Positions 1,711-31,999 of a stretch of DNA of 32,000 nt are shown here, piece by piece (within the stretch, counting starts at the first letter, position 1; every line of letters starts with the position of its first letter). Source of the stretch: Aquifex aeolicus VF5 (GTDB lineage: Bacteria; Aquificota; Aquificia; Aquificales; Aquificaceae). A program made the position numbers and the translations under genes. A model generated the notes under the pieces. The model saw only the letters and a program-made list of their open reading frames with translations. It was not told the origin of the DNA and ran no database searches. The stretch covers positions 1-32,000 of the forward strand of contig NC_001880.1 of the NCBI RefSeq assembly GCF_000008625.1, given 5' to 3'.

Positions 1711-3174
1711 ATGAAAGTAATCAAGAAAACGGTTCTTCTTAAAGTTTACGAACCAAACAAAGGAAAAAAGGAATGTCTTGATAGAGTAATAGACCTTTAC
1801 GCTAAAACGCTTGATTTTTACCTTGACGTTATCAAAAAAGCGGGAATATACAGAATAGTAGCACTTGCGAGGAAAAAGAAAGAAAGAAAATCAGGAAGGA
1901 AAAGCAACTATGCACTCAATTTGCTTGAAAAGTTAACCGTTCCCACACAAGCGCATCCAAACCCCCTCTATCCCATACCCTTCAGCGTGAGAGTTGATAT
2001 AAGAAGGAGTGCAATAAATCAAGCGATAGGAATGGTATCAAGCTACGTGTCAAACTTAAAAAACTGGTATGAAGAAGGAAAAGAACTCGGACACTCAAAA
2101 CCCTCGTATCCTAATCCAAAAAGCTACTCTCCTCAGCTTTACAGCACTTTAGTAGAACTTGACGACTTGCTTGTAAGGGAAAACAAAGAGTTTCACTTTG
2201 TGAGGATAAAGGTTCTGAACGAAAAAGAAAGATAGGAATGGAAGAATTATCCCGTGAAGGTATACAAAAGGTTGTATGAACTCCTGGGCAGGGGATACAA
2301 ACCGTTAAAGAGTGCAAGGTTAATAAAACGTGGAAAAGATTACTACATAGGGATAACCTTGCAAAAAGCTGTCAAGGAAAAGAAGATAAAAAAACCGAGG
2401 TATGTAATAAACGTGGATTTAAACGTTCAGAGGAATTTAGCTTGCATAGGGATATTTGAAGTAGATTGGGAAAAAAGAGAAAGCAAGCTATACGGGATAA
2501 AGTTTGTAAACGGAAAGCTTTTGAGACTTGTATACAAAAGGGATTACTTGTTTGAGGAGATAAGGAAGAAACAGAGGCAGACAGGAAGGAGTCCACAGGT
2601 AGGAGATAATTCAAGACTGTGGAAAAAAGTAAACAATTTAAACAGAGACATAGCTTTAAAAGTAGCGAAAGAAATAAGCGATATAGCAAGGGAGTTTTCA
2701 GAGAAAGGAGAAGTTATAGTAGTATTTGAAAAACTAAAAGGACTCAGAGGTAGGAAAGGAAGAAGCAAGAAGCTAAACAGAAAGATAAACTTCTGGATGA
2801 GAAGGAAAATACAGGAGAGAGTAAAGGAACTCGGATTAGAAGAAGGATTTGGATTAGATTTTGTGTATCCGCATTATACGTCAAAGAAGTGTAGCAAATG
2901 CGGTTATGAGGGAGAGAGGTTCTCTCCCTCGGGTTCAAAAGCGTTGTTTTTGTGTAAGAAGTGTGGATATGTGGTAAATGCGGACGTGAATGCGGTATTC
3001 AATCAACACTTTCTTTACCTGTCCCATCTCCTAAATGGAGGTGGGAAAGCCCGCCCTGTGGTGCGGGTTGGGACTTCGCTGAAAAGTCCCTCACGTGAGG
3101 GACACAATCTAAGCGGAGTCCCTAAAGCAACAACTACCTTTTTCTATATTTCTTCACTTTTGTCTACATTTTAA
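1711..3174 (+). pseudogene. tnpB: TnpB (IS200/IS605 OrfB, IS1341-type RNA-guided nuclease) interrupted by one in-frame TAG at 2233-2235
   Basis: ORFs 1711-2235 and 2254-3174 are in the same frame and separated only by TAG. RuvC-like motifs are present: INVDLNV, VVVFEKLKGL, VVNADVNAVFN. Zinc finger CSKCGY...CKKCGY. No tnpA nearby. Confidence 0.8.
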
Positions 3175-3706: not shown

Positions 3707-4044
3707 GTTCTCCCTATATAGGGAGAACCGATAGGCAATTACCTATTTTCTAATACATTCCTTGAAAGAAAAATTCCCCCTATTTAGGGAGAACTTGTTG
3801 TTTTGAGTATGATTTTTGAGGGGTTGAAAAGAAGTTCTCCCTAAGCACATTAACTTTATCTATACAGACAAGGAAAATTCTTGTTTTTAGAGTAATACCT
3901 AAAGTATTAGGGAGAACTTTTTAAAAGGTACTTGAAAATCAAAATATTACCCAAAGGTTCTCCCTAATTAGGGAGAATAAATTGTTTTTTTAAAATCTTT
4001 GCTCTTCAACTTTTCAGGATTTGTTCTCCCTATATAGGGAGAAC
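3707..4044. repeat. palindrome (iteron-like) array, module 1
   Basis: GTTCTCCCTATATAGGGAGAAC at 3707-3728 and 4023-4044. Degenerate full sites at 3773-3794 and 3957-3978. Left half at 3834-3843 and right half at 3908-3917, separated by a 64-nt AT-rich spacer. Confidence 0.85.
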
Positions 4045-4110
4045 TTAAACTTTTTATCTACTTTACTATTGCGACTATTTATCTACTTATCTAAATTTTG
4101 TAGGTAAGTT

Positions 4111-5064
4111 ATGGAGCATGAAAAAGCAATAAAAGAAATACTTGGAATAGACGACAGAATAAGGCTTTACGCAATAGAAAAATACGAGAAGAAGAAAAAG
4201 ACATTTTACAGATTTACGGGCTGGGATACTTACAAAAAGAAAATGGTGAAAGTACACATTCCCCGTAAGTTAGAAAAGGAAATCTTCTCCCTTTGGAAGG
4301 AACATCAGAAGGAGAAGCAACAACTAAAAGCTTTAGAACAAGAAGTCAAAGCACTCCTTGAAAAGTATAAAGACGCCGAAAAGATAAAAGAAGTTCTGGA
4401 AAGAATTGCTCAAGAGAGTATTACCAAAACCGCTTCAAGCCATGCATTAAAGACCTACACAGACAAAGCTAAAGAACTTTTCAAAAAGTTCGAAAAAGAC
4501 CTCATAAATCTCTACAAAGAAGGAGTTTTAAAAAGACTCACAATCCTTCAAGTCCTCTATCTCCTTGCCAATCTGAAAGAAATGTCAGAAGAACAGAAAA
4601 ATCCCCAGTTCCTCTTCAAGAAGGGAATAAGCACGATAATAAAGGTAGCAAAGAACGAAAGAATTCCGAATCCCTTCGGAACGCTAAAAAATGACTTTTT
4701 CCTTTCCGGGACACAAACTCCCTACGACTTTCTACTTTCAAGTTTCCTGGAAGAAGTCCTCGAAGAAACCTTGAGAGAGCTTCTTGAAAAAGAAATAGAA
4801 AAAATAGAAGCAGAAAGACGGGCAAAGGAATACGAAGAAAAAATGGAAAAGATAAAAGAAATAGTGGAGTGGTTCGAAAGCTTGCCCCACAAAATAAAGC
4901 AAACTGCAAAAGAAGTGATTTCTCAAAACACCGTGGAAGTAGCGGAAAAAATTTTGAAAGACATGGAAGATGGAAACTTCAGCTTGAAGGAAGTTCAGGA
5001 CTACCTTGAAAAGTCTACAAGAGAAAACCTTGTTGACTACTTCAGGTATCTCAAAAACCTTTAG
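4111..5064 (+). CDS. 317-aa conserved protein of module 1, putative initiator or array-binding protein (function inferred)
   Basis: Paralogs at 8785-9741 and 30009-30965. Shared blocks are LQVLYLLANLKE and NPFGTLKNDFFLSG.QTPYDFLLS. No Walker or HUH motifs seen. Confidence 0.8.
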   Translation: MEHEKAIKEILGIDDRIRLYAIEKYEKKKKTFYRFTGWDTYKKKMVKVHIPRKLEKEIFSLWKEHQKEKQQLKALEQEVKALLEKYKDAEKIKEVLERIAQESITKTASSHALKTYTDKAKELFKKFEKDLINLYKEGVLKRLTILQVLYLLANLKEMSEEQKNPQFLFKKGISTIIKVAKNERIPNPFGTLKNDFFLSGTQTPYDFLLSSFLEEVLEETLRELLEKEIEKIEAERRAKEYEEKMEKIKEIVEWFESLPHKIKQTAKEVISQNTVEVAEKILKDMEDGNFSLKEVQDYLEKSTRENLVDYFRYLKNL

Positions 5065-5876: not shown

Positions 5877-6824
5877 ATGGAACATTTCATAGACACCTAT
5901 CTTTACGAACTCAGGAAAGTAAGGGACGAAAAGACGATAAAGAAAAAGGAGTATCTTCTCAAGCACCTTCAGGATTATTCCGAGGACCTTCCCGCATTTG
6001 ACCAGTCCGAAATCTTCTCCTTCTATGAATACCTCAAAAACAAGAACCTCAAAGAAACTACCATAAGAGACATTCTCAAAGAAGTAAGGCTCTTCTACGA
6101 ATGGTTGCAGGAGCAAGGACTTAATTTGAAGTTTGACGAAAAGGCACTCAAAAAGCTATTTCAGTCTAAAAAGTCCCAAGAAGCCCTAAAGTCAAAGAAG
6201 AAGTATTACTCGGACGATGAGATAAACCTTATCTTGAATGCCATAAGGGGAGCTGTGGAGGGAATTTCTACAAAACACCCGATTTACTACATTCTTACGA
6301 TATTCCTGCTTTGTTCGGGACTGAGAATTTCCGAAGCGGTAAAGGTAAGAAAGAAAGACTTTGAAGTAAAGAGAATTTTGACGGAAGAAGGAGAAGAAAA
6401 GGAAGTGTGGTTTGTAAAAGTAAGGGAAGGAAAGTTCGGAAAGGAGAGAAAGGCACTTATCTACTTTTTCCGTCCTGAATGGAAGAGGATTTTTGAGGAA
6501 AGACTTAAAAAACTAAAGCCCGAGGACTTTTTCTTTACCTATGCGGTCAAATACCCAAAAAGCGTTAAAGTGTTCACACTTACGGATAAAACCGCCAAGT
6601 GGTTTTACTGGAAACTGGAAAAAGAATTAAGGGAAAAGGGATATGAGATTGAAGTAAACGCTCACAGGTTTAGAAATACATACATAACGAAGCTGGCAAC
6701 CAAAGGATTTCCTGTGAACCTGATAGCGGACTGGGTAGGACACTCAAAGATTTCCACTACTATGGACGTCTACATGGAAGCGGAGAGGGAAAAGCAATTA
6801 GAGGCTATTTTGGAGAGGATTTGA
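5877..6824 (+). CDS. tyrosine recombinase / phage-integrase family
   Basis: 315 aa. SGLRISEAV (box I Arg), HRFRNTYITKL, VGHSKISTTMDVY (His and catalytic Tyr region). Confidence 0.85.
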   Translation: MEHFIDTYLYELRKVRDEKTIKKKEYLLKHLQDYSEDLPAFDQSEIFSFYEYLKNKNLKETTIRDILKEVRLFYEWLQEQGLNLKFDEKALKKLFQSKKSQEALKSKKKYYSDDEINLILNAIRGAVEGISTKHPIYYILTIFLLCSGLRISEAVKVRKKDFEVKRILTEEGEEKEVWFVKVREGKFGKERKALIYFFRPEWKRIFEERLKKLKPEDFFFTYAVKYPKSVKVFTLTDKTAKWFYWKLEKELREKGYEIEVNAHRFRNTYITKLATKGFPVNLIADWVGHSKISTTMDVYMEAEREKQLEAILERI

Positions 6825-7101: not shown

Positions 7102-7327
7102 CTAATTTCTTTCCACCGCCCCTCTTTATCTCTTCCAGTCCTTTCTGACACTCTTCAAGGAAGTTAGGAATAGAAAGAAGCTCAAGCGTTTCTTTATGCC
7201 TCTTTATGTATTCGTCAATCAGCTCGTTCAATATGTCGTTAATCTTTCTTCCTTCATACCCTGCTAAAGCCCTAAGAAGCCGTGCTTTCTCTTCGTCAAT
7301 CCTGATAGTGGTTGTTACTCTCTTCAT
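7085..7327 (-). CDS. RHH-type antitoxin for RelE
   Basis: 80 aa. TTTIRIDEEKARLLRALAGYEGRKINDILNELIDEYI. Overlaps the relE-like gene by 17 nt. Confidence 0.65.
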   Translation of the reverse strand: MKRVTTTIRIDEEKARLLRALAGYEGRKINDILNELIDEYIKRHKETLELLSIPNFLEECQKGLEEIKRGGGKKLDELDD

Positions 7328-7394
7328 AAAAGATTAAAATAGAATATTGAATTGTTGATTTCAATAAGTCATGAAATCAAATTAAAGGGAAGCT

Positions 7395-8068: not shown

Positions 8069-8290
8069 TTATTCGGAAAGTTTCTCCAAAAGATAATCCA
8101 CAACTTCGGGTTTGAAGTAGTAGAGCCTTTTTCTTCCGCCCAATCTTTTGATGTGCATGTATTCTTGAGGTATAAAGCCTCTCAAAATCCAGTAGTATAT
8201 GCCAGACCGTGTTATAGGAATTCCTTTCTTATTTAGTTCCTCTAAAAGTTCGCTCAGGCTTATTAGCTTTTCTTCCGTCATCTGAACCAT
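8069..8290 (-). CDS. small MerR/excisionase-like HTH protein (module 2)
   Basis: 73 aa, paralog of 3448-3669. Divergent from 8785-9741 across the array. Confidence 0.65.
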   Translation of the reverse strand: MVQMTEEKLISLSELLEELNKKGIPITRSGIYYWILRGFIPQEYMHIKRLGGRKRLYYFKPEVVDYLLEKLSE

Positions 8291-8343
8291 ACTATTAATT
8301 TTTCTTCAGTTTTTTAGATTGTCAAAATTTTTGCGATTCAGTG

Positions 8344-8721
8344 GTTCCGCTAAATTTTGGCGGAACTTACAAATTCCCTTGAAAAATAAAAACTTGACGA
8401 AAGCCTTTTCCTGTTCAGTTCTGCTAAAACTTAGCGGAACTATTATCAAGTTCCCCAAAATCAACGCCTTCATAAGTGGAAGATTTCGGTTCCGCTAAAT
8501 ATATATTGTTGTTGAAATTCCCTTAAAGTTTTGAATTTTTCTACAACAGATTTTCTTTTAGCGGAACTCACACGTACGCTTATAAGCTCTTTGAAAATCA
8601 AAGTCTTGAAATGGGTTATGCGTAGTTCCGCTAACTTTTAGCGGAACTTTAGTCTTTTACACTTTTCGGAGAAAATTGGAAATCAAGAGTTTGACGTTGT
8701 TCCGCTAATATTTGGCGGAAC
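8344..8721. repeat. palindrome (iteron-like) array, module 2
   Basis: 23-bp GTTCCGCTAA-N3-TTAGCGGAAC-type sites at 8344-8366, 8418-8440, 8628-8650 and 8699-8721. Left half at 8489-8498 and right half at 8558-8567, separated by a 59-nt AT-rich spacer. Confidence 0.85.
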
Positions 8722-8784: not shown

Positions 8785-9741
8785 GTGAGGGAGGAAGTTG
8801 AAAGGAAAATAAAGGAAGTTCTCGGAGTAAAAGAGGAGACTTTAAAGTATGAGGGAGTTTTCAGACGAAGAAAGAGGAAGGGGGCAAAGGAATACGAATA
8901 TCTGGAAGCAAAGTTCTATGACATTGAAGAGAAGAAAATTGTAAACGTCCACGTCCCTGTAAAGAAAGAAAATCTTGTTCTTGAGCTGGACAGGCATTGG
9001 AAAGAAAGCAAGAAAAGGGAAAAAGAACTTGAAAAAAGGTTGAAAGAAATAATATCCGAATACAAAAATCCGGACCTAATAAGAGAAATCCTTGAAAGAC
9101 TCCTTGAGGAAGGCATTCGGCGAGAAGCAAAAGATTACGCTTATGAAAAATACAAAAAGGAAGCTCTTGAGCTTTTTGAGAGGTTCAAGCCCTATCTTAT
9201 CAAGCTAAGAAGGGAAAGACTGAAAAGAATAAACCTTTTGCAAGCACTATACCTTCTTGCGAATGTAAAGGAAATGTTCCAGGAAAAGGAAGAAGAACTT
9301 GAAAAGGTCATGGAAAGAGCGGTAAAAACAATCCTCTTTAGAGACCAAAACCAGAAACTTCAGAGTCCTTTGGGAGTCTTGAAAAATGACTTTTTCCTTC
9401 CAAAAGAAACTCCTTACGATTTTTTGCTTTCTCGTTTCCTTCAAGCGGAACTCGAACCTGTGCTTGAAAAGCTTCTGAAAGCGGAAATAGAAAAAGAAGA
9501 GACACAAGAGGCTATGGGAGAAATTGCAGAGTTTCTGACAGAACTTTCTGAAGAAGCAAAAAGTAGGGTTCTCAAAGTATTTCCATCCTTTTCGCAGTTT
9601 TCTAAAGTTTTGTACCGTGAGTGGAAGAAATCCGGACAATCTCTCAAGGATTTTCTTGTAGATTGGAAAAGCTTTCTCGAGTTCAAAGGAAAAGAAGCTG
9701 AAAAGGAAGTTTTGAACGTATTGTCTAAATTGAATTTATAA
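8785..9741 (+). CDS. 318-aa conserved protein of module 2 (putative initiator-like)
   Basis: GTG start. Shares LQALYLLANVKE and PLGVLKNDFFLPKETPYDFLLS with the other two paralogs. Confidence 0.8.
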   Translation: MREEVERKIKEVLGVKEETLKYEGVFRRRKRKGAKEYEYLEAKFYDIEEKKIVNVHVPVKKENLVLELDRHWKESKKREKELEKRLKEIISEYKNPDLIREILERLLEEGIRREAKDYAYEKYKKEALELFERFKPYLIKLRRERLKRINLLQALYLLANVKEMFQEKEEELEKVMERAVKTILFRDQNQKLQSPLGVLKNDFFLPKETPYDFLLSRFLQAELEPVLEKLLKAEIEKEETQEAMGEIAEFLTELSEEAKSRVLKVFPSFSQFSKVLYREWKKSGQSLKDFLVDWKSFLEFKGKEAEKEVLNVLSKLNL

Positions 9742-10130
9742 GGTAAGTTATTTAATTAACCTTACTTAGTTAACTAAGCTAATTTATTGCCGGTTAAGTA
9801 ATTTTCGAAAATGTTCTGAAGCTTGTACTCAGAAATCAAATTCCCCTTCAAGTTTTCCCGGAAACTCCTTAGAGCCTACTATTTATCCAGAGACAGGTAA
9901 AGAACCTGACAGAGAAGGGAAAGAGGGTAGATTCTTGCTTTGAGCTTGAAAGCCCTGCTTTACTCCTTAATCACTAAACGGGAAATGGAAATACCTGATA
10001 CCACGGTCAAATGATGTAAACTATTGTCAGCAAAGAAGAAAAGGTTGATTATTCAGAACTGGCTTCCGAGGCTTTCATTTTAAGGGAAAAGTTGAAAGTG
10101 ATAAAGTAGTTGACAATAAAGGAGTTTGTC

Positions 10131-13985: not shown

Positions 13986-14021
13986 GGAAGATGTAATCTT
14001 TGATTTTCAATAAGTTATTAA

Positions 14022-15257: not shown

Positions 15258-15585
15258 TCCAGGGTTGCATTACGGAAAAGTCAGGTTAAATTATAAATCC
15301 GCTACTGTATGAGGGAAGGAACGGGATATCCCAACGAAGGGGAGGTTCCCCGATGATGTGGGATGGAAAGTCCCGTTCCTGAAATGAGGTTGGAGTGTTA
15401 AGTAACCTGTCCCATCTCCTACATGGAGGTGGGAAAGCCCGCCCTGTGGTGCGGGTTGGGGTTTCGCTGAAAGGTCCCTCACGTGAGGGACACAATCTAA
15501 GCGGAGCCCCTAAAGCAACAGCTACTAATGTCTACTTAATGTCTATGTTTTAGAGTAGCTGTTGCAACCACGAGTGTATAGTAAA
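15258..15585 (+). mobile_element. tnpB-less miniature derivative of the IS1341-type element
   Basis: Contains the 166-bp copy of the tnpB 3' structured end. Flanked by the 14-bp direct repeat GCTTGACTAT(T/C)AAG at 15244-15257 and 15586-15599. Confidence 0.45.
15405..15570 (+). ncRNA. stand-alone omega-RNA-like scaffold copy
   Basis: Near-identical to 3017-3192. Substitutions in one stem become G-T pairs on the + strand only. Homology ends at GTTGCAACCAC in both copies. Confidence 0.5.
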
Positions 15586-16474: not shown

Positions 16475-17431
16475 TTACTCCCTCTTAAATTTGTTGTTTC
16501 TTTTCAGGATAAATTTAAACCTTTTGCTTATGGACACGCGTGAAACTTTGGAACCTTTATGATGCCACTCTATTATTCCCATTTCTTCCAGTTTATTTAA
16601 ATGAGCGTAGAAAGTTCTCTTCTTAAGACCTGAGAGATTCAGCAACTCGTCCGTCTTCATTCCGTACTCTCTGTCCTTCAAATGTTTAAGGATTGGTTCA
16701 AACTTGTGTAAAATTTCTTCATACTTTGCTTTCTCATTAATATACCAAGTAATTGCTCCATTTTTGTTTATGTAATAGTATATTTTTTCAAAAGGATAAG
16801 CAAAATTATGCTTTTCTATTGTCAATACCCGAAAGCTTTTCCCTTCTGTGTAGGCCTGCATAAAGGGAGTTGTTAAAAACTTAATTGTAGATACGCCCTG
16901 ATACCTGTCCGTTTTATTTTTTCCTGAACTTTTAATCGTGTGATGAATAAACATTATGTGACTTTCAGAATTTCTTGCTAACTTTCTTGTTTTTTTAATA
17001 AATTCCTTAACTTCTACAGGATCATAAATAGACTTTCCTTCATAAAAGGCAACAAAACTATCAACCACAACAAAATCGTAGCGTTTTTGTTCCAGTATCT
17101 TTTCAAAACTCCTGTAATCCGAAATGTCGTCCAGATCCATTATTTCCATTTCTGAAGTGCTTATTCTGTATCTTTTTCTTATTGGTTCTAACTTTTCTAA
17201 GATATCTTCCTTATAAAGTTCCAGAGATATATAGGCTACTTTCTTCGGTTCCTTAACTTTGAGTAAATTGTGAAATAAGTTCTTACCTGCACCTGCCAGT
17301 AGACACAAGTAAAGGCTTATGGTAGTTTTCCCTACACCTGAATCACCGTAAAGTATGGAAACGTATCCCTTCCTGAAAAACTCGTCAAAATTTTGCGCAC
17401 TGTTGCTCCTTTTGTATTCACTTAACCTCAT
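16475..17431 (-). CDS. RecA/KaiC-like (RepA, AAA_25-type) P-loop ATPase with C-terminal winged-helix
   Basis: Walker A GDSGVGKT and Walker B DFVVVDSF. The C-terminus [32 protein letters not shown] is wHTH-like. Confidence 0.7.
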
Positions 17432-19682: not shown

Positions 19683-20048
19683 CTATTTCCAGAATTTCGA
19701 GATTGCCAAGTTAAGGGTTAGAGGAGTGGAATGATCTAACGAGAATAAAAGAGGCAAATCAAGACCAACAGTTTCATATTTGGCATTGTGGGGAAATCGC
19801 TTGTGAAAACCCTTCATCCTTTGCTTTATGTGCTTGAACCACCTCTCCACTACATTCCTACCTCCGAAAGTTTCATGTATCCATCCGCAGTTTAGTTCCC
19901 TACATGCTTTCCTATACCATGGCCCCTTATCCGTTACAAACACGTATCCTTTTGAGTTGTAAAGCACAAGTTTTGCCACATGGGAGCTTTTTTTAGCACT
20001 TAACCACACAAAAGTAGGCACTCCCTTCAAGTTACAAGCTATCCACAA
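19683..20048 (-). pseudogene. IS6-family DDE transposase, C-terminal fragment with its terminal repeat (copy B)
   Basis: TDKGPWYRKACRELNCGWIHETFGGRNVVERWFKHIKQRMKGFHKRF matches the GPWY...FG.RN.VERFF..LK.R pattern of archaeal and thermophile IS6 elements. The N-terminal half is missing. The IS end starts at 19699. Confidence 0.7.
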
Positions 20049-20130
20049 GAGACCGCCAAGTTAAGGATTAGGGGAAAGGAGAGATTTAATGAGAATAAAA
20101 GGAAGCGAGCCAAGACCAGACAGTTTCATG
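20049..20130 (+). mobile_element. second IS6-type end (copy C) abutting the truncated transposase
   Basis: GAGACCGCCAAGTTAAGGATTAGGGG...AATGAGAATAAAAGGAAGC...CAGTTTCAT aligns with 19699-19780. Confidence 0.4.
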
Positions 20131-20565: not shown

Positions 20566-20689
20566 TTTATCATTCTCCTAAAGACTGAGAATTCCCAAAC
20601 TTCATCACCAAAGAAGTTTGATATTTGAAAATCAATAGATTGGTAAATATACCTTTATAAACATATTGAAAATCAAAGGCTTAAAGCAA

Positions 20690-21603: not shown

Positions 21604-21712
21604 AATAGGTTGAAAATCAAGGGAACTGTTAATAACAGAACTTTACTGGAGTTTTAGAATCTCTTGAATATGCTTTGGCAATTATTTTATATGACATAAA
21701 CTGTAAACTTCT

Positions 21713-24246: not shown

Positions 24247-24795
24247 TCAGCGTTTACTTATTCTTATAACGGAAAACAGAGAGGTGAAAATATTTCTCTT
24301 TTCACTTACCCCTATAGTTTTTAAAAACTCCTCTTTTAGAATGAGATAACTGTCCTGTAAAAATCCATTATCAAATTCTTCAAGCGGTGTGAGATAACCC
24401 GCATCTTTTATCTGGACTTTATAACAAGGGACAAGTTTCTTTTGATCCTGTTTGTGATAATAACGGACCTCTTCAAATTTTTCGGGAGAGGTAAGGTAGA
24501 GTTTCTTCCATCCTTTGAGCATAGCCCTTTCAAAGTTCCCGTAATAATTTTCGGGAACGGGAATTCCCTCGTTAAGTAGAAAGTCTCTTGAAAAGTAAAG
24601 AGGATCTTCTTCTTTTAACTCAATCTTTTCAGGATTAACACATTTTAAAAACTTCAGAAAGAGAGAATTGTTTGCTTTTCCTAAAAGTTTATTTACGCTC
24701 TTTTTTGAAGAAATCTGAACCTCAAAAGGCAAGAAACACGCTCTCCTGAAAATCTGCCTTTCTCCCGTAAGATCAAAAAGATTACTGGTTAACAT
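24247..24795 (-). CDS. hypothetical protein, possibly the C-terminal continuation of the upstream P-loop NTPase
   Basis: ATG at 24795 overlaps the upstream stop by 14 nt. The frame is open up to 24828. IFRRACFLPFEV resembles the RR...iPF segment after Walker B in D5/P4-type NTPases (weak). Confidence 0.5.
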   Translation of the reverse strand: MLTSNLFDLTGERQIFRRACFLPFEVQISSKKSVNKLLGKANNSLFLKFLKCVNPEKIELKEEDPLYFSRDFLLNEGIPVPENYYGNFERAMLKGWKKLYLTSPEKFEEVRYYHKQDQKKLVPCYKVQIKDAGYLTPLEEFDNGFLQDSYLILKEEFLKTIGVSEKRNIFTSLFSVIRISKR

Positions 24796-25561
24796 AGCTC
24801 CTCTTTTTACTCCCGAGTCTCCACTCAATTCCTTTAGCTTTTAGCTTTGAACCAAGTGCTCTTTTATCCCTGAGATGTTCTGGTGGAACTTCGTCAATAA
24901 GAACAGGCATTCTGTTATCTATGTAAAGAATTGCCTCAAAAGTATTTGCCTTGCTGTTTCTGGTTTCCTTTAATTTTCCGTAGTAAATTTTTTCTGTCCC
25001 CAGAAGTTTTGCTATGAAATTAAGAAGCGTAGTTTTTCCGGCCTTAGGAGTACCTATTAAAAGGGAAAATACGGGAAATTTATTTATATCCTTCATTAAC
25101 TCAGTTGCTTTTTCCCTGACTTCCTTGAGAAATACAGAATAAAAAGAAAATATAATAGCCTCTCCGGTTAAAAATCTGTGTTCCTCACTCGTTTCTGTGG
25201 AAAGTTCTATATAATCCTTTATCGCAATTACAGTTTTCTTTACAGATTCCTCGGGAATAGAAATCTCAACAACGGATTTTCCATTATAAAAAATTTCTCC
25301 ATCGCAAACCGCTACGTTTACTTTTTCATCTTTATCTTCCCTTTTATTCTTCAAGATTTCCTGAATCTTTTGAGGAGATATTAGTATTTCCTTCTTCTTT
25401 TCCGCAAGCTTCTGAAACATTTCTGCGCTTTCTTCAACCGCTTTTTTTCTGACAAGAGACTTCTGAGCTTCGTTAAAAATGGGACTGTTAATCACTTTAG
25501 TATAGTAGTAATTGAGAACAACATTTTTTACTTTTTCGTTTTTCTCAAATTCCTTTATCAC
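24782..25561 (-). CDS. P-loop NTPase (Walker A GTPKAGKT, Walker B VLIDEV)
   Basis: ORF track entry. Its frame stays open upstream, without a start codon, to 25789 and overlaps the PLD-domain ORF. Confidence 0.65.
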   Translation of the reverse strand: MIKEFEKNEKVKNVVLNYYYTKVINSPIFNEAQKSLVRKKAVEESAEMFQKLAEKKKEILISPQKIQEILKNKREDKDEKVNVAVCDGEIFYNGKSVVEISIPEESVKKTVIAIKDYIELSTETSEEHRFLTGEAIIFSFYSVFLKEVREKATELMKDINKFPVFSLLIGTPKAGKTTLLNFIAKLLGTEKIYYGKLKETRNSKANTFEAILYIDNRMPVLIDEVPPEHLRDKRALGSKLKAKGIEWRLGSKKRSYVNQ

Positions 25562-25740: not shown

Positions 25741-26184
25741 TTACAAAAAAAACTCTTCCTGAGGTCCCCTCCAGGCTAAAGAGGATAAATTACCACTCCC
25801 TGCTACGACAATTTTCCTTTCTTCGGATTCAAGTATGTATAACTTTGTATGACAGTTTGGAATGTAGTAAACGGAGAAATCTTTAAACATGGCTTGTTTA
25901 CTTATTTCTTCTCCTTCTTTGAGGAACTTTTCCACTATAACTTCCAGGTTATAAAGTTCCCTTCCTTGTTCTTCTAACCCTATCAGGATTTCCACTTCCC
26001 TGTAATCCTTTAAAAGATCAAGGATACTCTTCAGAGAGGAGAAAGTTATAGCTTTTATCCTGTTGAATTGCCTAAGGTATTTCCCTGGAATATCGTACAG
26101 GAGTTTAATTTCCTCTTCGCCTATACTAAGAATAGGCTTTTTAGTATCTTTTTCAGGTTCCTCTGAAAAAAGTTGTTTGTTCAT
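25741..26184 (-). CDS. PLD/HKD-domain protein
   Basis: ATG at 26184 after a GGGAGG SD. The motif CHTKLYILESEERKIVVAGSGNLS fits H-x-K...G-S-x-N. It ends in a T8 run followed by TAATAA. Confidence 0.65.
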   Translation of the reverse strand: MNKQLFSEEPEKDTKKPILSIGEEEIKLLYDIPGKYLRQFNRIKAITFSSLKSILDLLKDYREVEILIGLEEQGRELYNLEVIVEKFLKEGEEISKQAMFKDFSVYYIPNCHTKLYILESEERKIVVAGSGNLSSLAWRGPQEEFFL

Positions 26185-26334
26185 TATACCTCCCAAACTA
26201 CTTAAAATTTCGCATCAGATAGTGCCTATTTCAAGCTAAGTCCTATCTTTTACTAAACTTACTTTTCTAACTTATATAAGTTATATTACTTATAAAACTA
26301 AACTTTATTTAAAGAATAAAATTCATTAGCACCC

Positions 26335-27954
26335 TTATACGACTTCTACCAGTAAAGGAAAAGGTACGCCGGTTCCGCTCACAATACCTTTACCGGTAGG
26401 TAGTTTCGGAAGAATGTTCGCTATATCACTTCCAGCAAATTCTACAAAAGTGGAAACTGTATCAATGTCAGATGCATTTATAGTTCTAAACATAACCTGA
26501 GTGTTTAATTGAGAAAGGATATATTTGCTAACCTGTGCTGGTCTTTGCGTTATTACCATAAGTCCTAAATTGAATTTCCTTCCCTCGGATGCTATCTTTC
26601 TGGCAAAAGTGAGAGAAAGGTTTTCTTTTCCTGCGGAGACATCCCCGAATCCCTTTTCTGGAGCAAAATTGTGCGCCTCTTCCAGAACTAAAAATCTTTT
26701 GGAAGGTTGTTTCTTATTCCTTGTAAAAAGCTCTTCCATTATCAGTCCTGCTATGTTTATTCTCGTTTGTGGATGCGTAATATTCCGGAAGTTAAAAATA
26801 ATTACTCTCTTTTCACTTTCTAGTCCAGAATTTATTGCATCAAATACAGTTGTTTGGTTAGATAAACTATTTTCACCGTAAGTTTCTTTAAGGTAAGTGG
26901 TTATTTCTTGTATTTCCTTAGAACCCGCATTTAAACTTTCTATCAAATTAACAAGTGTTTTCTTAGATAAAGAAGTAAGTCTAAGAGAGGGTTTTATGTT
27001 CTGTGAAAGTTTTGATCTATTTTCCCTGGCCTGGTGTGAATTACCGCTTACCAGTGAAGGGTATCCTGCTTCTTTTATAAGTTCTTCCACTTCCTCTGGA
27101 AACACAGGGAAAATTGTATCTTCAAGTTCGATATGTTCTATCTAGTTTTCATCTATATAACTCTTTAAATCGTTGAAGTATTCTCCGTGAGGATCAAGTA
27201 CATAAACTTCAACTTCTTTATCGGATTCAAGTAAACTGGAAATAAACCTTTTTGTAAAATAGCTTTTTCCTGAACCGGTAGTACCTAGTACGAGCATGTG
27301 TTTACTTATCACCTCGTTTGCATCTACAAACACATCTATGTCAGAATTCTCAATCACGCCAACTTTTACAGGAACTTCCATATCTCTCCCGGAAAAATTC
27401 TTCTTGAGTATTTTCCCCAGTGTTTTTTCTGATATTTTATAAACAGGTTCTCCTACATGGAAGGGATTTCTTAATATATCTAATTTTCCATCCTTTAGTA
27501 TACCTATTACGTCCGCGGTTGCTATTTTCAGTTTATTTCCATTATTGTTGAGGTAAGCGTAAATAGCCGCCTTTTTCCATTCGTCATCTTTTCCTTTAGA
27601 AAAAATGGTTTTAAAGTCCTCTACGGGAGCAAAAACACTGGATTCCTGTGAAGTGAAGGGATTCGCAAAAAATCCCATATCGTAAGCAAAAATACTTGTT
27701 ATCTTTCCGAGCACAATACCTTCCTGTAATTTCACTTCAACGTAAGAATGTAAACCTATATCATCATTGCCTACCAGAATAAACTCAAAGGATTGAGGTT
27801 TTACAGGATTTACAGTAAATCCTAAAAGATCATCTCCAAAACTTTCGGAATACTCTTCCTTAATTTTTTCAAAGTATTCACGTAGTTTTTTAATATGTTC
27901 ATCACTGCCGTCCGATTCGTAATAAACTCCCGCTTCTATATTGCCCGTTGACAT
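26335..27954 (-). pseudogene. herA: HerA/FtsK-superfamily (DUF87) ATPase interrupted by one in-frame TAG (27144-27142)
   Basis: Walker A LGTTGSGKS, VLDPHGEY, Walker B FLVLEEAHNF and ITQRPAQVSKYILSQLNTQVMFR. ORFs 27142-27954 and 26335-27105 share one frame. Confidence 0.8.
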
Positions 27955-29329: not shown

Positions 29330-29548
29330 TTAGACGGAGAGCTCCTGAACAAGAAAATCTACCACTTCCGGTTTGAAGTAGTAGTAATTAACAAGTCCTC
29401 TTCTCTTTATCCTTACCAATTCACCGGGAATGAAGCCTCTCTTTACATAACGGATTAAAGTTCTATCGCTTATCTCTATACCTCTTTCTTTAAGTTCTCT
29501 TAGAACCTGCGTACTCGTAAGATATCCCTGAATTCTTATTGCCGGCAT
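29330..29548 (-). CDS. small MerR/excisionase-like HTH protein (module 3)
   Basis: 72 aa, paralog of 3448-3669 and 8069-8290 (YYYFKPEVVDFLVQELS). Confidence 0.65.
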   Translation of the reverse strand: MPAIRIQGYLTSTQVLRELKERGIEISDRTLIRYVKRGFIPGELVRIKRRGLVNYYYFKPEVVDFLVQELSV

Positions 29549-29605
29549 TTACATTAAGATAATAAGCTCTAAAGCCTTCCTTTTCAAGGAAAAAATAGAA
29601 TTAGA

Positions 29606-29949
29606 GTTCTCCTATATATAGGAGAACTACTTTGAGCTCGCTAAAAATCAAGTCTCAGACACACCACTTGAACTCCGGAAGTTCTCCTAGCTATAGGAGA
29701 ACCGCTACTTAACTTATTGATTTTCAAGCACTTTCTGTTTAGTTCTCCTAGAAACATTTATATCTTTTTCCATATACAAAAGCTTTTTGTTATTGGAGAA
29801 GTAATAAGTTATATAGGAGAACTCTCCTTTCAAGTTTTTGATTTTCAATATAGTTCTCCTATATATAGGAGAACTTTTGTGATTTTTTCTATTCTGTAAT
29901 GCCCGATTTTTAGTTTGGTCATAAGTGGTTCTCCTAGAACTAGGAGAAC
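29606..29949. repeat. palindrome (iteron-like) array, module 3
   Basis: GTTCTCCTATATATAGGAGAAC at 29606-29627 and 29853-29874. Variants at 29681-29702 and 29928-29949. Left half at 29742-29750 and right half at 29814-29822, separated by a 63-nt AT-rich spacer. Confidence 0.85.
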
Positions 29950-30008: not shown

Positions 30009-30965
30009 ATGCTTGAAGTTGAAAAAAAGATAAAACAAAAGCTGGGGATAGATGAAACAGAGGTCCTGAGCTCCCTAACGAGCTACCGGAAAAAAGGCAA
30101 AACCTACTATAAAATTGTAACATACGATTCAAAAACGAAACAATCTAGGAGATACCATGTGCCCAGAATGTTCGAAGAGGAGATTTTAGCTCTCTGGAAG
30201 CAGCGGCAGAAGTACATTGAAGAAGAAAGGGAACTTGAAAGGGAAGTAAAAAGCCTCTTAAAAAAATACGGGGATGCAGAAAAGATAAAGGAAATTCTGG
30301 AAAAAGTAGCAGGAGAAAGTTTTGATAAAGCTGTTTCCTCTTACGCAATTAAGACTTACACGAATAAGGCAAAGGAACTCTTTAAGAGTTTTAAAGAAGA
30401 CCTTATAAAGCTTTACAGGGAGGGAGTTTTAAAAAGGCTTTCAGTTTTGCAGGTCCTTTACCTTCTTGCAAATTTGAAGGAGATTTCCGAAGATACGGAA
30501 AGAGGAAGTTACTTTTTCAAGAAAGGACTGAACACGATAATAAAAGTAGCAAAAAACGAACGTATCCCAAATCCTTTCGGAACACTTAAAAACGACTTTT
30601 TCCTTTCGGGAAAGCAGACCCCTTATGACTTTCTCCTTTCGAATTTTCTTGAAGAGCTTATAGGAGAAACTCTAGGAGAACTCCTTGAAAAGGAAATTGA
30701 GAAATTAGTAGCGGAAGAAAAAGCAAAAGAAATCGAGGGAAAAGTAAAGAAGTTAAAGGAAATTGTTTCATGGTTTGAAACCCTTCCCTACGAAATAAAA
30801 CAGATTGCAAAAGAAGTAATTTCTGACAATGTTCTGGATATTGCAGAAAAGTTCTACAAGGATATGAAAGAATGCAATTACTCTCTTGATGAAGCAAAAG
30901 CATTTTTAACAAGTTCTCCTAGAGATAACCTGGTGAATTACATGCAATACCTTAAGTCTATATGA
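30009..30965 (+). CDS. 318-aa conserved protein of module 3 (putative initiator-like)
   Basis: Closest paralog of 4111-5064, with long identical blocks such as KNERIPNPFGTLKNDFFLSG. Confidence 0.8.
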   Translation: MLEVEKKIKQKLGIDETEVLSSLTSYRKKGKTYYKIVTYDSKTKQSRRYHVPRMFEEEILALWKQRQKYIEEERELEREVKSLLKKYGDAEKIKEILEKVAGESFDKAVSSYAIKTYTNKAKELFKSFKEDLIKLYREGVLKRLSVLQVLYLLANLKEISEDTERGSYFFKKGLNTIIKVAKNERIPNPFGTLKNDFFLSGKQTPYDFLLSNFLEELIGETLGELLEKEIEKLVAEEKAKEIEGKVKKLKEIVSWFETLPYEIKQIAKEVISDNVLDIAEKFYKDMKECNYSLDEAKAFLTSSPRDNLVNYMQYLKSI

Positions 30966-30970
30966 AAGTC

Positions 30971-31174
30971 TTACGCATTCTCTGAGAGTATTTCCGTTAT
31001 AAGATCCTTCAACGTTTTCCCTTCCTTTAATGCCCTCATTTTAAGAGAAAACCACACATCATAAGGAAGCTCTATCAGAAGTTTCTTAACCTGTGGTTTT
31101 TCTTCCCCTTCTTTTATCTTTGCAGAAGCTATAAATTCCTCGGGTTTTTTTGAAGGTTTCTTCGGTATAGCCAT
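30971..31174 (-). CDS. RHH centromere-binding protein (ParG-like)
   Basis: 67 aa with a basic N-tail. The C-terminal KKLLIELPYDVWFSLKMRALKEGKTLKDLITEIL is RHH-like. Immediately downstream of parA. Confidence 0.6.
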   Translation of the reverse strand: MAIPKKPSKKPEEFIASAKIKEGEEKPQVKKLLIELPYDVWFSLKMRALKEGKTLKDLITEILSENA

Positions 31175-31204
31175 TATGTAACCTCCTTTATTTAAATTAC
31201 TAAG

Positions 31205-31846
31205 TTAAGCAATATTAATTATATTACTAATTTCATTTATTAAGCTTTCAAGCTCCTCTATTGCTTTTTTATCGTTCATTTCAAGCACTCCCTTTCCTTC
31301 TTTTACAGAGTTTCTGTAAACTACTCTTGAGTGCAATCTTGAATTTAATACTCCTACGGAGTACTGCTGTGCTAATTCTCTCAGGGTTTCCTCAGCTTCT
31401 TTCACGATGTTAGACTTTATTACTTGATTAAACAGTATATAAGCCGGGATATCTGCAAAGGTCCTTGCTTCTTGCAGAACCTTCAGGGTATCTTCTGTTG
31501 CCCATACATCGTAAACACTTGGGAGAACAGGTATTATCAAAGCTCCGTTTGATGCTGCAAGAATCGCGCTTCTGAAAACTGCACTATCTCTTCCCCCTAC
31601 GTCGATAACTACAACATCAAAATTTTCAAAACCCTTAATGTCTTTGTGAATTGTGGGCTTTGTAATACCTATTGCTTTAATGTCGTCTTTTTCCCTGAGT
31701 GCCCTGAAGTTCAAACTACTTTCCTGGATATCCGCATCAATAAGTAGAACACTTTTTCCTCTGAGAGAATATCCTACGGCTAAATTACACGCAACAGTAC
31801 TTTTCCCTACTCCTCCCTTCTGATTACCTACCACGATTACTTTCAT
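31205..31846 (-). CDS. parA: ParA/Soj-type partition ATPase
   Basis: Deviant Walker A GNQKGGVGKST, LLIDADIQ, VVIDVGG. 213 aa. Confidence 0.85.
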   Translation of the reverse strand: MKVIVVGNQKGGVGKSTVACNLAVGYSLRGKSVLLIDADIQESSLNFRALREKDDIKAIGITKPTIHKDIKGFENFDVVVIDVGGRDSAVFRSAILAASNGALIIPVLPSVYDVWATEDTLKVLQEARTFADIPAYILFNQVIKSNIVKEAEETLRELAQQYSVGVLNSRLHSRVVYRNSVKEGKGVLEMNDKKAIEELESLINEISNIINIA

Positions 31847-31929
31847 AATGTTATTTATTTTAGCAATATTTATTAGATAAGTTAGCTAACTAAAACTGAT
31901 TTCAATATTTGATTATATAGATATGCCGC

Positions 31930-31999
31930 TTTCTATCTTTGCTTATCTAACTTATGTTGTTTAACTAATAATGATAACTTTTATTACAAAGTTTACTAA
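31930..31999. repeat. parA-upstream segment, inverted partner of 16328-16397
   Basis: See 16328-16397. The match may continue past the window edge. Confidence 0.75.

Follow-up and report, generated by a model that had tools for sequence, protein, structure and literature searches.

A Conserved, Two-Fold-Symmetric Palindrome Array at the Probable Core of a Plasmid Maintenance Module in Aquifex aeolicus

Introduction

What purpose is served by three copies of an elaborate, non-coding array of palindromes on a single small plasmid? The DNA analyzed here (the window) comes from the Aquifex aeolicus plasmid ece1 (39,456 bp), of which it covers 32 kb, and it contains three such arrays, at positions 3707–4044, 8344–8721, and 29606–29949. 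Each lies immediately 5' of a gene for one of three 317–318-aa paralogs (36–61% identical to one another), and on the opposite side of each is a gene for a 72–73-aa paralog (44–49% identical to one another) of the helix-turn-helix (HTH) type (Table 1). Because this combination of small HTH gene, array, and orphan gene is repeated three times, we treat the unit, which spans ~1.7 kb, as a module. The product of open reading frame (ORF) 4111–5064 is 100% identical to the uncharacterized A. aeolicus protein aq_aa07, and our literature search found nothing on ece1 replication or on these arrays. Judged from its sequence and that of its relatives, the array probably forms the functional core of a plasmid maintenance module that has not been described before.

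Results and Discussion

An Array Built around a Split Palindrome

All three arrays have the same order: two full palindromes (P1 and P2), a left half-site, a spacer of 59–64 bp, a right half-site, and two further full palindromes (P3 and P4), as seen by reading of the sequence, a palindrome search, and half-site mapping. A preliminary description of the window had proposed this order along with the half-site positions, and the same approaches bear out both in all three arrays; its site-to-site spacing of 56–83 bp likewise encompasses the 66–75 bp that separate neighboring full-site centers in the window. Removal of the spacer would restore an ordinary palindrome, and the term "split palindrome" is therefore apt for the center of the array.

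Exact 10-mer copies of each of the three half-site types are confined, within the window, to their own array. When up to one mismatch is allowed, the half-sites of arrays 1, 2, and 3 have 15, 12, and 15 matches in the window, respectively, compared to 2.7, 1.5, and 3.4 expected, and none of 100 shuffles attained the observed counts. Some arms are less well preserved, such as the degenerate left arm of P2 in array 1 (ATTCCCCCTA). Half-site-like sequences with one mismatch are also found within the module 3 gene, at 30660–30681 and 30913–30922; the pair at 30660–30681 encodes the conserved peptide IGETLGELL (GGAGAA specifying Gly-Glu) and is therefore probably a coding coincidence.

The Layout Is Conserved while the Site Sequence Changes

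The 317–318-aa family is tiny, with 19 clusters in a word-indexed search and 27 matches in a profile search of 1.8 billion representatives. Using DNA of homologs taken from metagenome-assembled genomes and from hot-spring or vent metagenomes, we found the identical order upstream of ten further family members (loci L004, L014, L001, L017, L007, L002, L016, L010, L003, and L011). The layout is thus kept in 13 arrays, three in the window and ten elsewhere, despite at least seven types of site sequence; those among the relatives are GTTCTCCCTA, GTTCTCCTAT, GTTCCCTATG, GTTCTACCCT, GTTCTACGCC-like, TCTACCATA, and GTTCTCCC, the last with a wider center. In all arrays the full sites are palindromes of 22–25 bp with centers 66–85 bp apart. 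Across the 13, the starts of the left and right half-sites are 69–77 bp apart, the separation between half-sites is 59–67 bp, and the insert relative to an ordinary palindrome is 56–65 bp (median 61). One additional locus, L018, is an exception, as it starts with the left half-site and, where the right half would be expected, has an almost full site.

The constancy of the order among 13 arrays, combined with the variability of the site sequence among at least seven types, strongly supports the earlier proposal that the array geometry is under selection. The preliminary description had also named the finding that would speak against it, namely homologous arrays without the split site; the ten further arrays listed above all carry one.

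A Second Motif and Mirror Symmetry

The segments between sites contain a second motif, m (TTGAAAATCAA), which is present with up to two mismatches in 35 of 44 inter-site spacers as compared to 5% in shuffles, and at the same threshold in one of 11 central spacers and one of 11 leaders. Its logo reads cTTGAAAATCAAaa..TT.A, with a weak extension resembling the integration host factor (IHF) consensus WATCAANNNNTTR. With up to one mismatch, m has 12 matches (3.3 expected). Exact copies also occur outside the arrays in other intergenic regions (14000–14010 on the minus strand, 20625–20635, 20666–20676, and 21610–21620). Given these four non-array places, the reader of m is probably a conserved, perhaps host-encoded, factor. 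The copies outside the arrays suggest that m serves a global or host factor throughout the plasmid.

The array is mirror symmetric in several respects. The P1–P2 spacing equals the P3–P4 spacing within an array (66–68 or 72–76 bp in most arrays), the inner copies of m are oriented away from the array center, and in P2 and P3 the arms directed away from the center are the most degenerate (0.96 versus 0.35 mismatches). Where the HTH gene runs co-directional with the array (array 1, L004, and L010), the symmetry is still present. The inner half-sites have ~0.25 mismatches per 10 nt, a figure that leaves out one array with a mis-set register, versus 0.54 for the arms of full sites. They are not decayed relics, being kept at least as well as the full-site arms.

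The DnaG primase of A. aeolicus prefers the template trinucleotide 5'-CCC, with GCC and CGC weaker (PMC2532735). Most half-site types contain 5'-CCC, CGC, or GCC, in an orientation that would send primers outward from the spacer; the half-site type of array 3 and those of L003 and L013 have no primase initiation trinucleotide. A link between the half-site trinucleotides and priming is possible but speculative.

The Central Spacer Is Fixed in Length and Composition

Among close relatives the spacer sequence diverges, whereas the palindromes, m, and the leader are conserved and the length of the spacer is held. The spacers had been called unique, which is correct in that their sequence is not conserved but overlooks the mirror-symmetric base composition that they have in common. 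Composition flips from A-rich to T-rich at the center, with an AT skew of +0.43 in the sixth of the spacer just left of it and −0.61 in the sixth just right of it, and a purine-rich strand adjoins each half-site. The exact center is often of the form AnNTn (AAAAGCTTTT, CAAAGCTTTG, GAAAATTC). In six of 11 arrays the dyad symmetry of the spacer individually beats shuffles at p<0.05, and Fisher combination of the eleven gives p ~1e-4. We rejected an origin of the spacers as miniature inverted-repeat transposable element (MITE) insertions because they have no common sequence between arrays.

With a G+C content of 17–29% in the 13 arrays, the spacer is the most AT-rich segment of the array (0.23 versus 0.295 for other inter-site spacers, Wilcoxon p=0.0005, and versus 0.27 for leaders, p=0.008; both values are optimistic because the arrays are phylogenetically non-independent). 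Its nearest-neighbor free energy is less favorable than that of the other inter-site spacers in all 13, and its estimated polymer melting temperature is ~89 °C versus ~92 °C for other segments (~3.4 °C lower). A temperature of ~89 °C is close to that at which the host grows.

The Best Promoter-Like Sites Lie outside the Array

A strict sigma-70 consensus scan found no promoter in the three window spacers, and returned good promoter-like sites for the divergent HTH genes, located between P1 and the gene (8325..8298 and 29587..29559, both on the minus strand). In a position weight matrix (PWM) scan of 11 arrays, the best sites were in the leader that runs from P4 to the start codon (8/11) and to the left of P1, while only two of the 11 spacers scored ≥7. 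As the best promoter-like sites are outside the arrays, the center is not needed to transcribe the flanking genes. A central promoter was rejected on the results of the two scans, and is kept as a weak rival. By eye, a TTG is found 25–28 nt upstream of the right half-site in seven of 11 arrays, and its mirror image is frequent on the left; weak outward promoters are thus conceivable.

The leaders also contain locus-specific direct repeats: TTTATCTACTT twice in array 1 (4053–4063 and 4078–4088), AAACATCGTAATAA twice in L003 (994–1053), CTTGAACA twice in L010 (1327–1385), and repeats at 1876–1944 in L002. At several loci these overlap the best promoter-like site, and they are candidate operators for the HTH_17 protein.

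The Module Proteins

The 27 profile-search relatives of the 318-aa protein include none that is annotated, and searches of PLSDB and phage records by tblastn, as well as of IMG/VR, were negative. An AlphaFold2 model (pLDDT 84.5) consists of a helix and three strands in residues 1–50 followed by long helices; a Foldseek search with this model against the PDB and BFVD gave no match at E<0.001. The loop NPFGTLKNDFFL...TPYDFLLS.FL (residues 181–213 of the 317-aa protein; window ~4651–4750) shows no variation and is modeled with low confidence; no other part of this otherwise variable protein is as strongly conserved. The loop is a candidate motif for docking of a host partner.

The family is mosaic. 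The homologs P0005 (L017, 744–1697) and P0011 (L016, 789–1733) are near-identical in their C-terminal 200 residues and have unrelated N-termini, and the palindrome type changes with the N-terminus, not the C-terminus. Specificity is accordingly attributable to the N-terminal region or else to the linked HTH gene. In the HTH_17 protein the recognition helix likewise changes with site type, so the covariation fits both candidate readers. In two loci (L007, 2914–3345, and L011, 1542–1994, both on the minus strand) the HTH_17 gene is a tandem duplication, encoding chains of 143 and 150 aa with two unlike HTH_17 modules each; the occurrence of unlike tandem domains beside symmetric palindromes mildly favors the 318-aa protein as the palindrome reader. 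The HTH protein has a weak match to the PHROG "excisionase and transcriptional regulator."

A Possible Replication Origin

From the layout, its conservation and symmetry, the composition of the spacer, and the positions of promoter-like sites, we infer the binders, melting, and replication of the following model. The four full palindromes would be occupied by dimers of a module-encoded DNA-binding protein, the preferred candidate being the N-terminal beta-sheet domain of the 318-aa protein, which is variable and basic. A conserved accessory factor, which might be an architectural protein of the host, would sit on the TTGAAAATCAA motifs to give a symmetric complex of ~350 bp. At each inner half-site a single DNA-binding domain would be held at one edge of the ~60 bp, 77% A+T spacer, the two domains being inverted relative to each other. 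For one dimer to fit both half-sites the spacer would have to loop out or melt, so that the energy of binding would be coupled to duplex opening at the dyad axis, from which replication could run both ways. The outermost palindromes and the leader repeats would provide autoregulation, with the gene promoters outside the array. With ten half-sites and four accessory motifs in ~350 bp, and a center whose length and composition are constrained while its sequence is free, the array is more elaborate than simple autoregulation would require and is best taken for a cis-acting site of some DNA transaction.

We put the probability that the array is a two-fold-symmetric, initiator-organized replication origin at roughly 40%. 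In its favor we count the location of modules beside ParA/ribbon-helix-helix (RHH) and toxin-antitoxin genes with no known Rep family, and the possession by parA of separate repeats. Also in its favor are the conserved layout and mirror symmetry, the well-kept half-sites, the held insert length, the AT-rich spacer with an estimated melting temperature near that of growth, promoter-like sites that are best outside the array, the agreement of palindrome type with the N-terminus of the 318-aa protein, and the lack of another iteron-like array in 9.7–29.3 kb. A bolder version is possible, if doubtful: the modules would represent a bacterial plasmid replicon of a new class, found in hyperthermophilic Aquificales alone, with an orphan initiator carrying a swappable N-terminal beta-sheet domain and a symmetric origin opened by clamping of a palindrome split by ~60 bp of near-melting DNA.

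Several observations weigh against an origin. The 317–318-aa proteins have no Pfam, NCBIfam, or PHROGs family and no likeness to an initiator or helicase, and their predicted, largely helical structure looks more like structural or segregation proteins than a classical Rep. None of the arrays contains a DnaA box TTATCCACA with up to one mismatch, assuming the standard box for Aquifex. GC skew, which is confounded by gene orientation, does not single out the arrays, and it would be unusual for one 39-kb plasmid to have three active origins. Moreover, ece1 has other possible replication proteins, namely an AAA_25 (RepA/DnaB-like) protein with a C-terminal winged helix (16475–17431, minus strand) and a weak DUF927/AAA_14 match (24782–25561, minus strand). 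Finally, all that the L013 copy retains of the array is its right part (P3, m, P4); this copy adjoins xseA (exonuclease VII large subunit), with an isolated right half-site 206 bp further upstream (L013 1–515 / L012), and may be a domesticated or decaying copy.

The melting behavior of the spacer is a further difficulty. The preliminary description likened the spacer to an unwinding element, and asked whether it melts more easily than flanking DNA. The likeness is borne out in part: the spacer is indeed the most AT-rich and least stable array segment and melts more readily than the remainder of its array, yet it has no such advantage over promoter and intergenic DNA close by. In a nearest-neighbor profile (array plus 150 bp flank), the 40-bp window of lowest stability falls within the spacer in only three of 11 arrays. 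In calculations of stress-induced duplex destabilization (SIDD), which used a single-bubble approximation of the Benham model at 37 °C and negative supercoiling (sigma −0.045 to −0.065) for a host that has reverse gyrase, the spacers were never peaks (opening p≤0.05) and other intergenic tracts opened (in the window, 1629–1729, 7319–7387, 9715–9788, 31181–31250, and 31839–31923). We therefore reject the spacer as an intrinsic melting hot spot on the nearest-neighbor profile and the approximate SIDD, and the lack of DnaA boxes likewise counts against the unwinding-element claim. Because the spacers melt no more easily than neighboring promoter and intergenic DNA, any opening would need to be driven by protein.

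Alternative Explanations

An absence of intrinsic melting would suit a centromere-like, plasmid-pairing, or copy-control site that works independently of an NTPase, in which the 318-aa protein would coat the palindromes, the spacer would be a bendable hinge, and m would take an architectural protein. This is unlikely, yet to be reckoned with. The predicted N-terminal helix and three strands followed by long helices recall the general architecture of KfrA and pSK1 Par (a small DNA-binding head with long helices); the sites are upstream of the protein's own gene; the paralogs differ in specificity, as incompatibility determinants would; the AnNTn type of spacer center is known to bend; and m has its weak IHF-like extension. 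However, the protein has no homology to any centromere-binding protein, and a ParA/RHH pair, with upstream repeats of its own, is beside only one of the three modules. In addition, inserts differ by up to 9 bp in length, almost one helical turn, a range that sits poorly with a phased ~60-bp loop, and known centromere repeats are contiguous, not 66–75 bp apart.

Rather improbable as a full account is a purely transcriptional role, with the array forming a multi-operator repressosome for the HTH_17 and 318-aa genes and the spacer either looped out or holding two weak promoters that point outward, back to back, with −10 elements that run into the half-sites. The position of the arrays between both genes, the adjacency of the outer palindromes to promoter-like sites, and the retention of P3-m-P4 beside the gene in L013 are as such a role would predict, as is the recurrent TTG 25–28 nt from the right half-site, since back-to-back promoters need ~58 bp. 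Set against these are the empty strict scan of the three spacers, the PWM results that place the best sites in leaders and left flanks and reach ≥7 in just two of 11 spacers, an array whose ~350 bp, ten half-sites, and four accessory motifs exceed the needs of autoregulation on a compact plasmid, and a symmetric layout that is kept where both genes are co-directional. Highly improbable is an attP/res-type recombination or resolution site, in which the HTH_17 protein would be an excisionase-like factor and strands would be exchanged near the split site. HTH_17 is an excisionase/MerR-like family, consistent with the weak PHROG match, and a tyrosine recombinase gene (5877–6824) is near module 1. 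No recombinase, however, is found beside modules 2 and 3 or at L004, L007, L010, L011, or L003; known core sites have 6–8 bp between inverted recombinase sites, as compared to 59–67 bp here; and there are no direct-repeat junctions.

Comparison to Known Systems

By analogy, the arrays would work most like origins that have inverted initiator sites around an AT-rich center, such as the archaeal arrangement of a DNA unwinding element (DUE) between origin recognition boxes (ORBs) or herpes simplex virus (HSV) oriS. The archaeal comparison had been drawn in the preliminary description; it applies to the layout of inverted half-sites around an AT-rich spacer, but not to the proteins, as the modules encode no Orc1/Cdc6 or known initiator. 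As in an archaeal oriC, inverted elements face each other across an AT-rich segment, extra copies lie outside, and the gene of the presumed binder is adjacent. Unlike it, the modules lack an AAA+ protein, the host is a bacterium, the sites are full palindromes and one split palindrome rather than oriented ORBs, the TTGAAAATCAA motif is an extra, and the ece1 spacer has no intrinsic destabilization peak. HSV oriS (UL9 Box I, AT-rich spacer, Box II) and the core origins of simian virus 40 (SV40) and polyoma are two-fold symmetric, with inverted initiator sites around an AT-rich center, a plan that the ece1 arrays resemble. The initiators of these viruses are helicases, whereas the 318-aa protein has no NTPase motif, and their spacers are ~18 bp as opposed to ~60 bp.

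Iteron plasmids (R6K pi, pPS10 RepA, F RepE) likewise combine an array of sites with an adjacent protein gene, in their case that of Rep, and an AT-rich segment. Their Rep proteins bind as dimers to inverted repeats and as monomers to single repeats, which parallels our reading of full sites and half-sites in the ece1 arrays. Iterons, however, are direct repeats of 17–22 bp in helical register, placed ~22 bp apart, in contrast to ece1 palindromes 66–75 bp apart, and the ece1 modules have neither a Rep_3-type winged-helix protein nor a DnaA box and are symmetric, not one-sided.

Among segregation sites, P1 parS has binding boxes on both sides of an AT-rich hinge that is bent by IHF, the bend joining the ParB boxes, and R1 parC has two blocks of five repeats around a central core of ~39 bp. 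Both resemble the ece1 arrays in having sites upstream of the gene of the binding protein that flank a central segment. They differ from them in that the ece1 module has no partner NTPase and no sequence or fold homology to these systems, and the R1 core is a promoter whereas the best promoter-like sites of ece1 are outside the array. Membership in ParABS, ParMRC, or TubZRC finds no support, in that no NTPase domain is encoded by the module genes and the 318-aa protein has no ParB, RHH, or TubR match; to our knowledge, HTH_17 is not a centromere-binding family. The likeness to KfrA and pSK1 Par comprises the small N-terminal DNA-binding head (here predicted), long helices, and sites upstream of the protein's own gene, but there is no detectable homology in Pfam or PDB folds, and the N-terminus is predicted to be a helix and three-stranded sheet, not an HTH. 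The arrays belong to none of the archaeal, viral, iteron, parS, or parC families: the defining proteins are absent, the type of site and the spacing differ, and DnaA boxes are lacking.

Plasmid Context

A ParA gene (31205–31846, minus strand) and an RHH gene (30971–31174, minus strand) adjoin module 3, convergent with the 318-aa gene, and a pair in the same arrangement adjoins the L004 module; in the window, only this one of the three modules has such neighbors. Upstream of parA are its own repeats, TTAGCTAAC and TTATCTAACTTA (31847–31960), which are unlike the array sites. Other module neighbors are toxin-antitoxin genes, an AAA+ ATPase, and unknown genes, with no known Rep family among them. 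No further iteron-like array was detected within 9.7–29.3 kb, and no Rfam family in the window. A check for small circular plasmids with the module alone found terminal overlaps in none of the contigs.

The window has other features. A HerA/FtsK-like ATPase is split into two ORFs (26335–27954, minus strand) beside an ORF for a phospholipase D-like nuclease (25741–26196). An 18-bp palindrome, GTCCCTCACGTGAGGGAC, occurs in two identical copies (3086–3103 and 15474–15491), one at the end of a TnpB/Cas12f-like ORF (2254–3174) and the other at a 52-aa fragment (15395–15553) that is 77% identical to that ORF; these are the remains of an IS200/IS605-type element. A 53-nt direct repeat, 81% identical and 350 bp apart (19699–19751 and 20049–20101), flanks an ORF at 19683–20048 (minus strand).

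Table 1. Features of the three modules on ece1 (window positions).
Feature	Positions	Strand	Remarks
Module 1 small HTH_17 protein, 73 aa	3448..3669	+	Pfam HTH_17 E=1e-5; co-directional with array 1
Array 1 full palindrome P1	3707..3728		GTTCTCCCTATATAGGGAGAAC
Array 1 full palindrome P2	3773..3794		arm facing away from center degenerate
Array 1 left half-site	3834..3843	+	GTTCTCCCTA
Array 1 central spacer	3844..3907		64 bp, 27% G+C; dyad-symmetric composition about GGAAAATTC
Array 1 right half-site	3908..3917	-	TAGGGAGAAC
m motif, between right half-site and P3 of array 1	3932..3942	+	exact
Array 1 full palindrome P3	3957..3978
m-like motif, between P3 and P4 of array 1	3999..4009	-	2 mismatches
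Array 1 full palindrome P4	4023..4044
Best promoter-like site of module 1	4069..4097	+	TTGCGA-17-TAAATT; in leader, outside array 1; overlapped by TTTATCTACTT x2
Module 1 orphan 317-aa protein (aq_aa07)	4111..5064	+
Module 2 HTH_17-like 73-aa protein	8069..8290	-	divergent from array 2
Array 2 full palindrome P1	8344..8366		GTTCCGCTAAATTTTGGCGGAAC
m-like motif, array 2	8379..8389	+	2 mismatches
Array 2 full palindrome P2	8418..8440
Array 2 left half-site	8489..8498	+	GTTCCGCTAA
Array 2 central spacer	8499..8557		59 bp, 22% G+C
Array 2 right half-site	8558..8567	-	TTAGCGGAAC
m motif, array 2	8591..8601	+	exact
Array 2 full palindrome P3	8625..8647
m motif, array 2	8676..8686	+	1 mismatch
Array 2 full palindrome P4	8699..8721
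Module 2 orphan 318-aa protein	8785..9741	+
Module 3 HTH_17-like 72-aa protein	29330..29548	-	divergent from array 3
Array 3 full palindrome P1	29606..29627		GTTCTCCTATATATAGGAGAAC
m-like motif, array 3	29641..29651	+	2 mismatches
Array 3 full palindrome P2	29681..29702
m motif, array 3	29717..29727	-	exact; pointing away from center
Array 3 left half-site	29742..29751	+	GTTCTCCTAG
Array 3 central spacer	29752..29812		61 bp, 21% G+C; center CAAAAGCTTTTTG
Array 3 right half-site	29813..29822	-	ATAGGAGAAC
m motif, array 3	29838..29848	-	exact
Array 3 full palindrome P3	29853..29874
Array 3 full palindrome P4	29928..29949
Module 3 orphan 318-aa protein	30009..30965	+

Conclusions

What is new here is that a probable plasmid maintenance module, with site arrays around an AT-rich center, is made from orphan parts. 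Little is known of plasmid replication and segregation in hyperthermophilic bacteria, and ece1 itself has no recognized Rep gene. The module is a compact, testable candidate, comprising two orphan proteins and an array whose grammar, derived from natural variation in 13 examples, consists of four full palindromes around a split one, four accessory motifs, and a spacer fixed in length and composition and free in sequence. The N-terminal domain swaps that track site changes would provide, in addition, a natural set of protein–DNA specificity pairs. If the array is an origin, a deep-branching bacterium would be shown to use a symmetric plan like that of archaea or viruses, and binding would be coupled in a new way to the opening of DNA close to its melting temperature; a centromere or pairing site would instead represent a new NTPase-independent system. 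Either way, the module could supply the missing replicon for genetic tools in the Aquificales.

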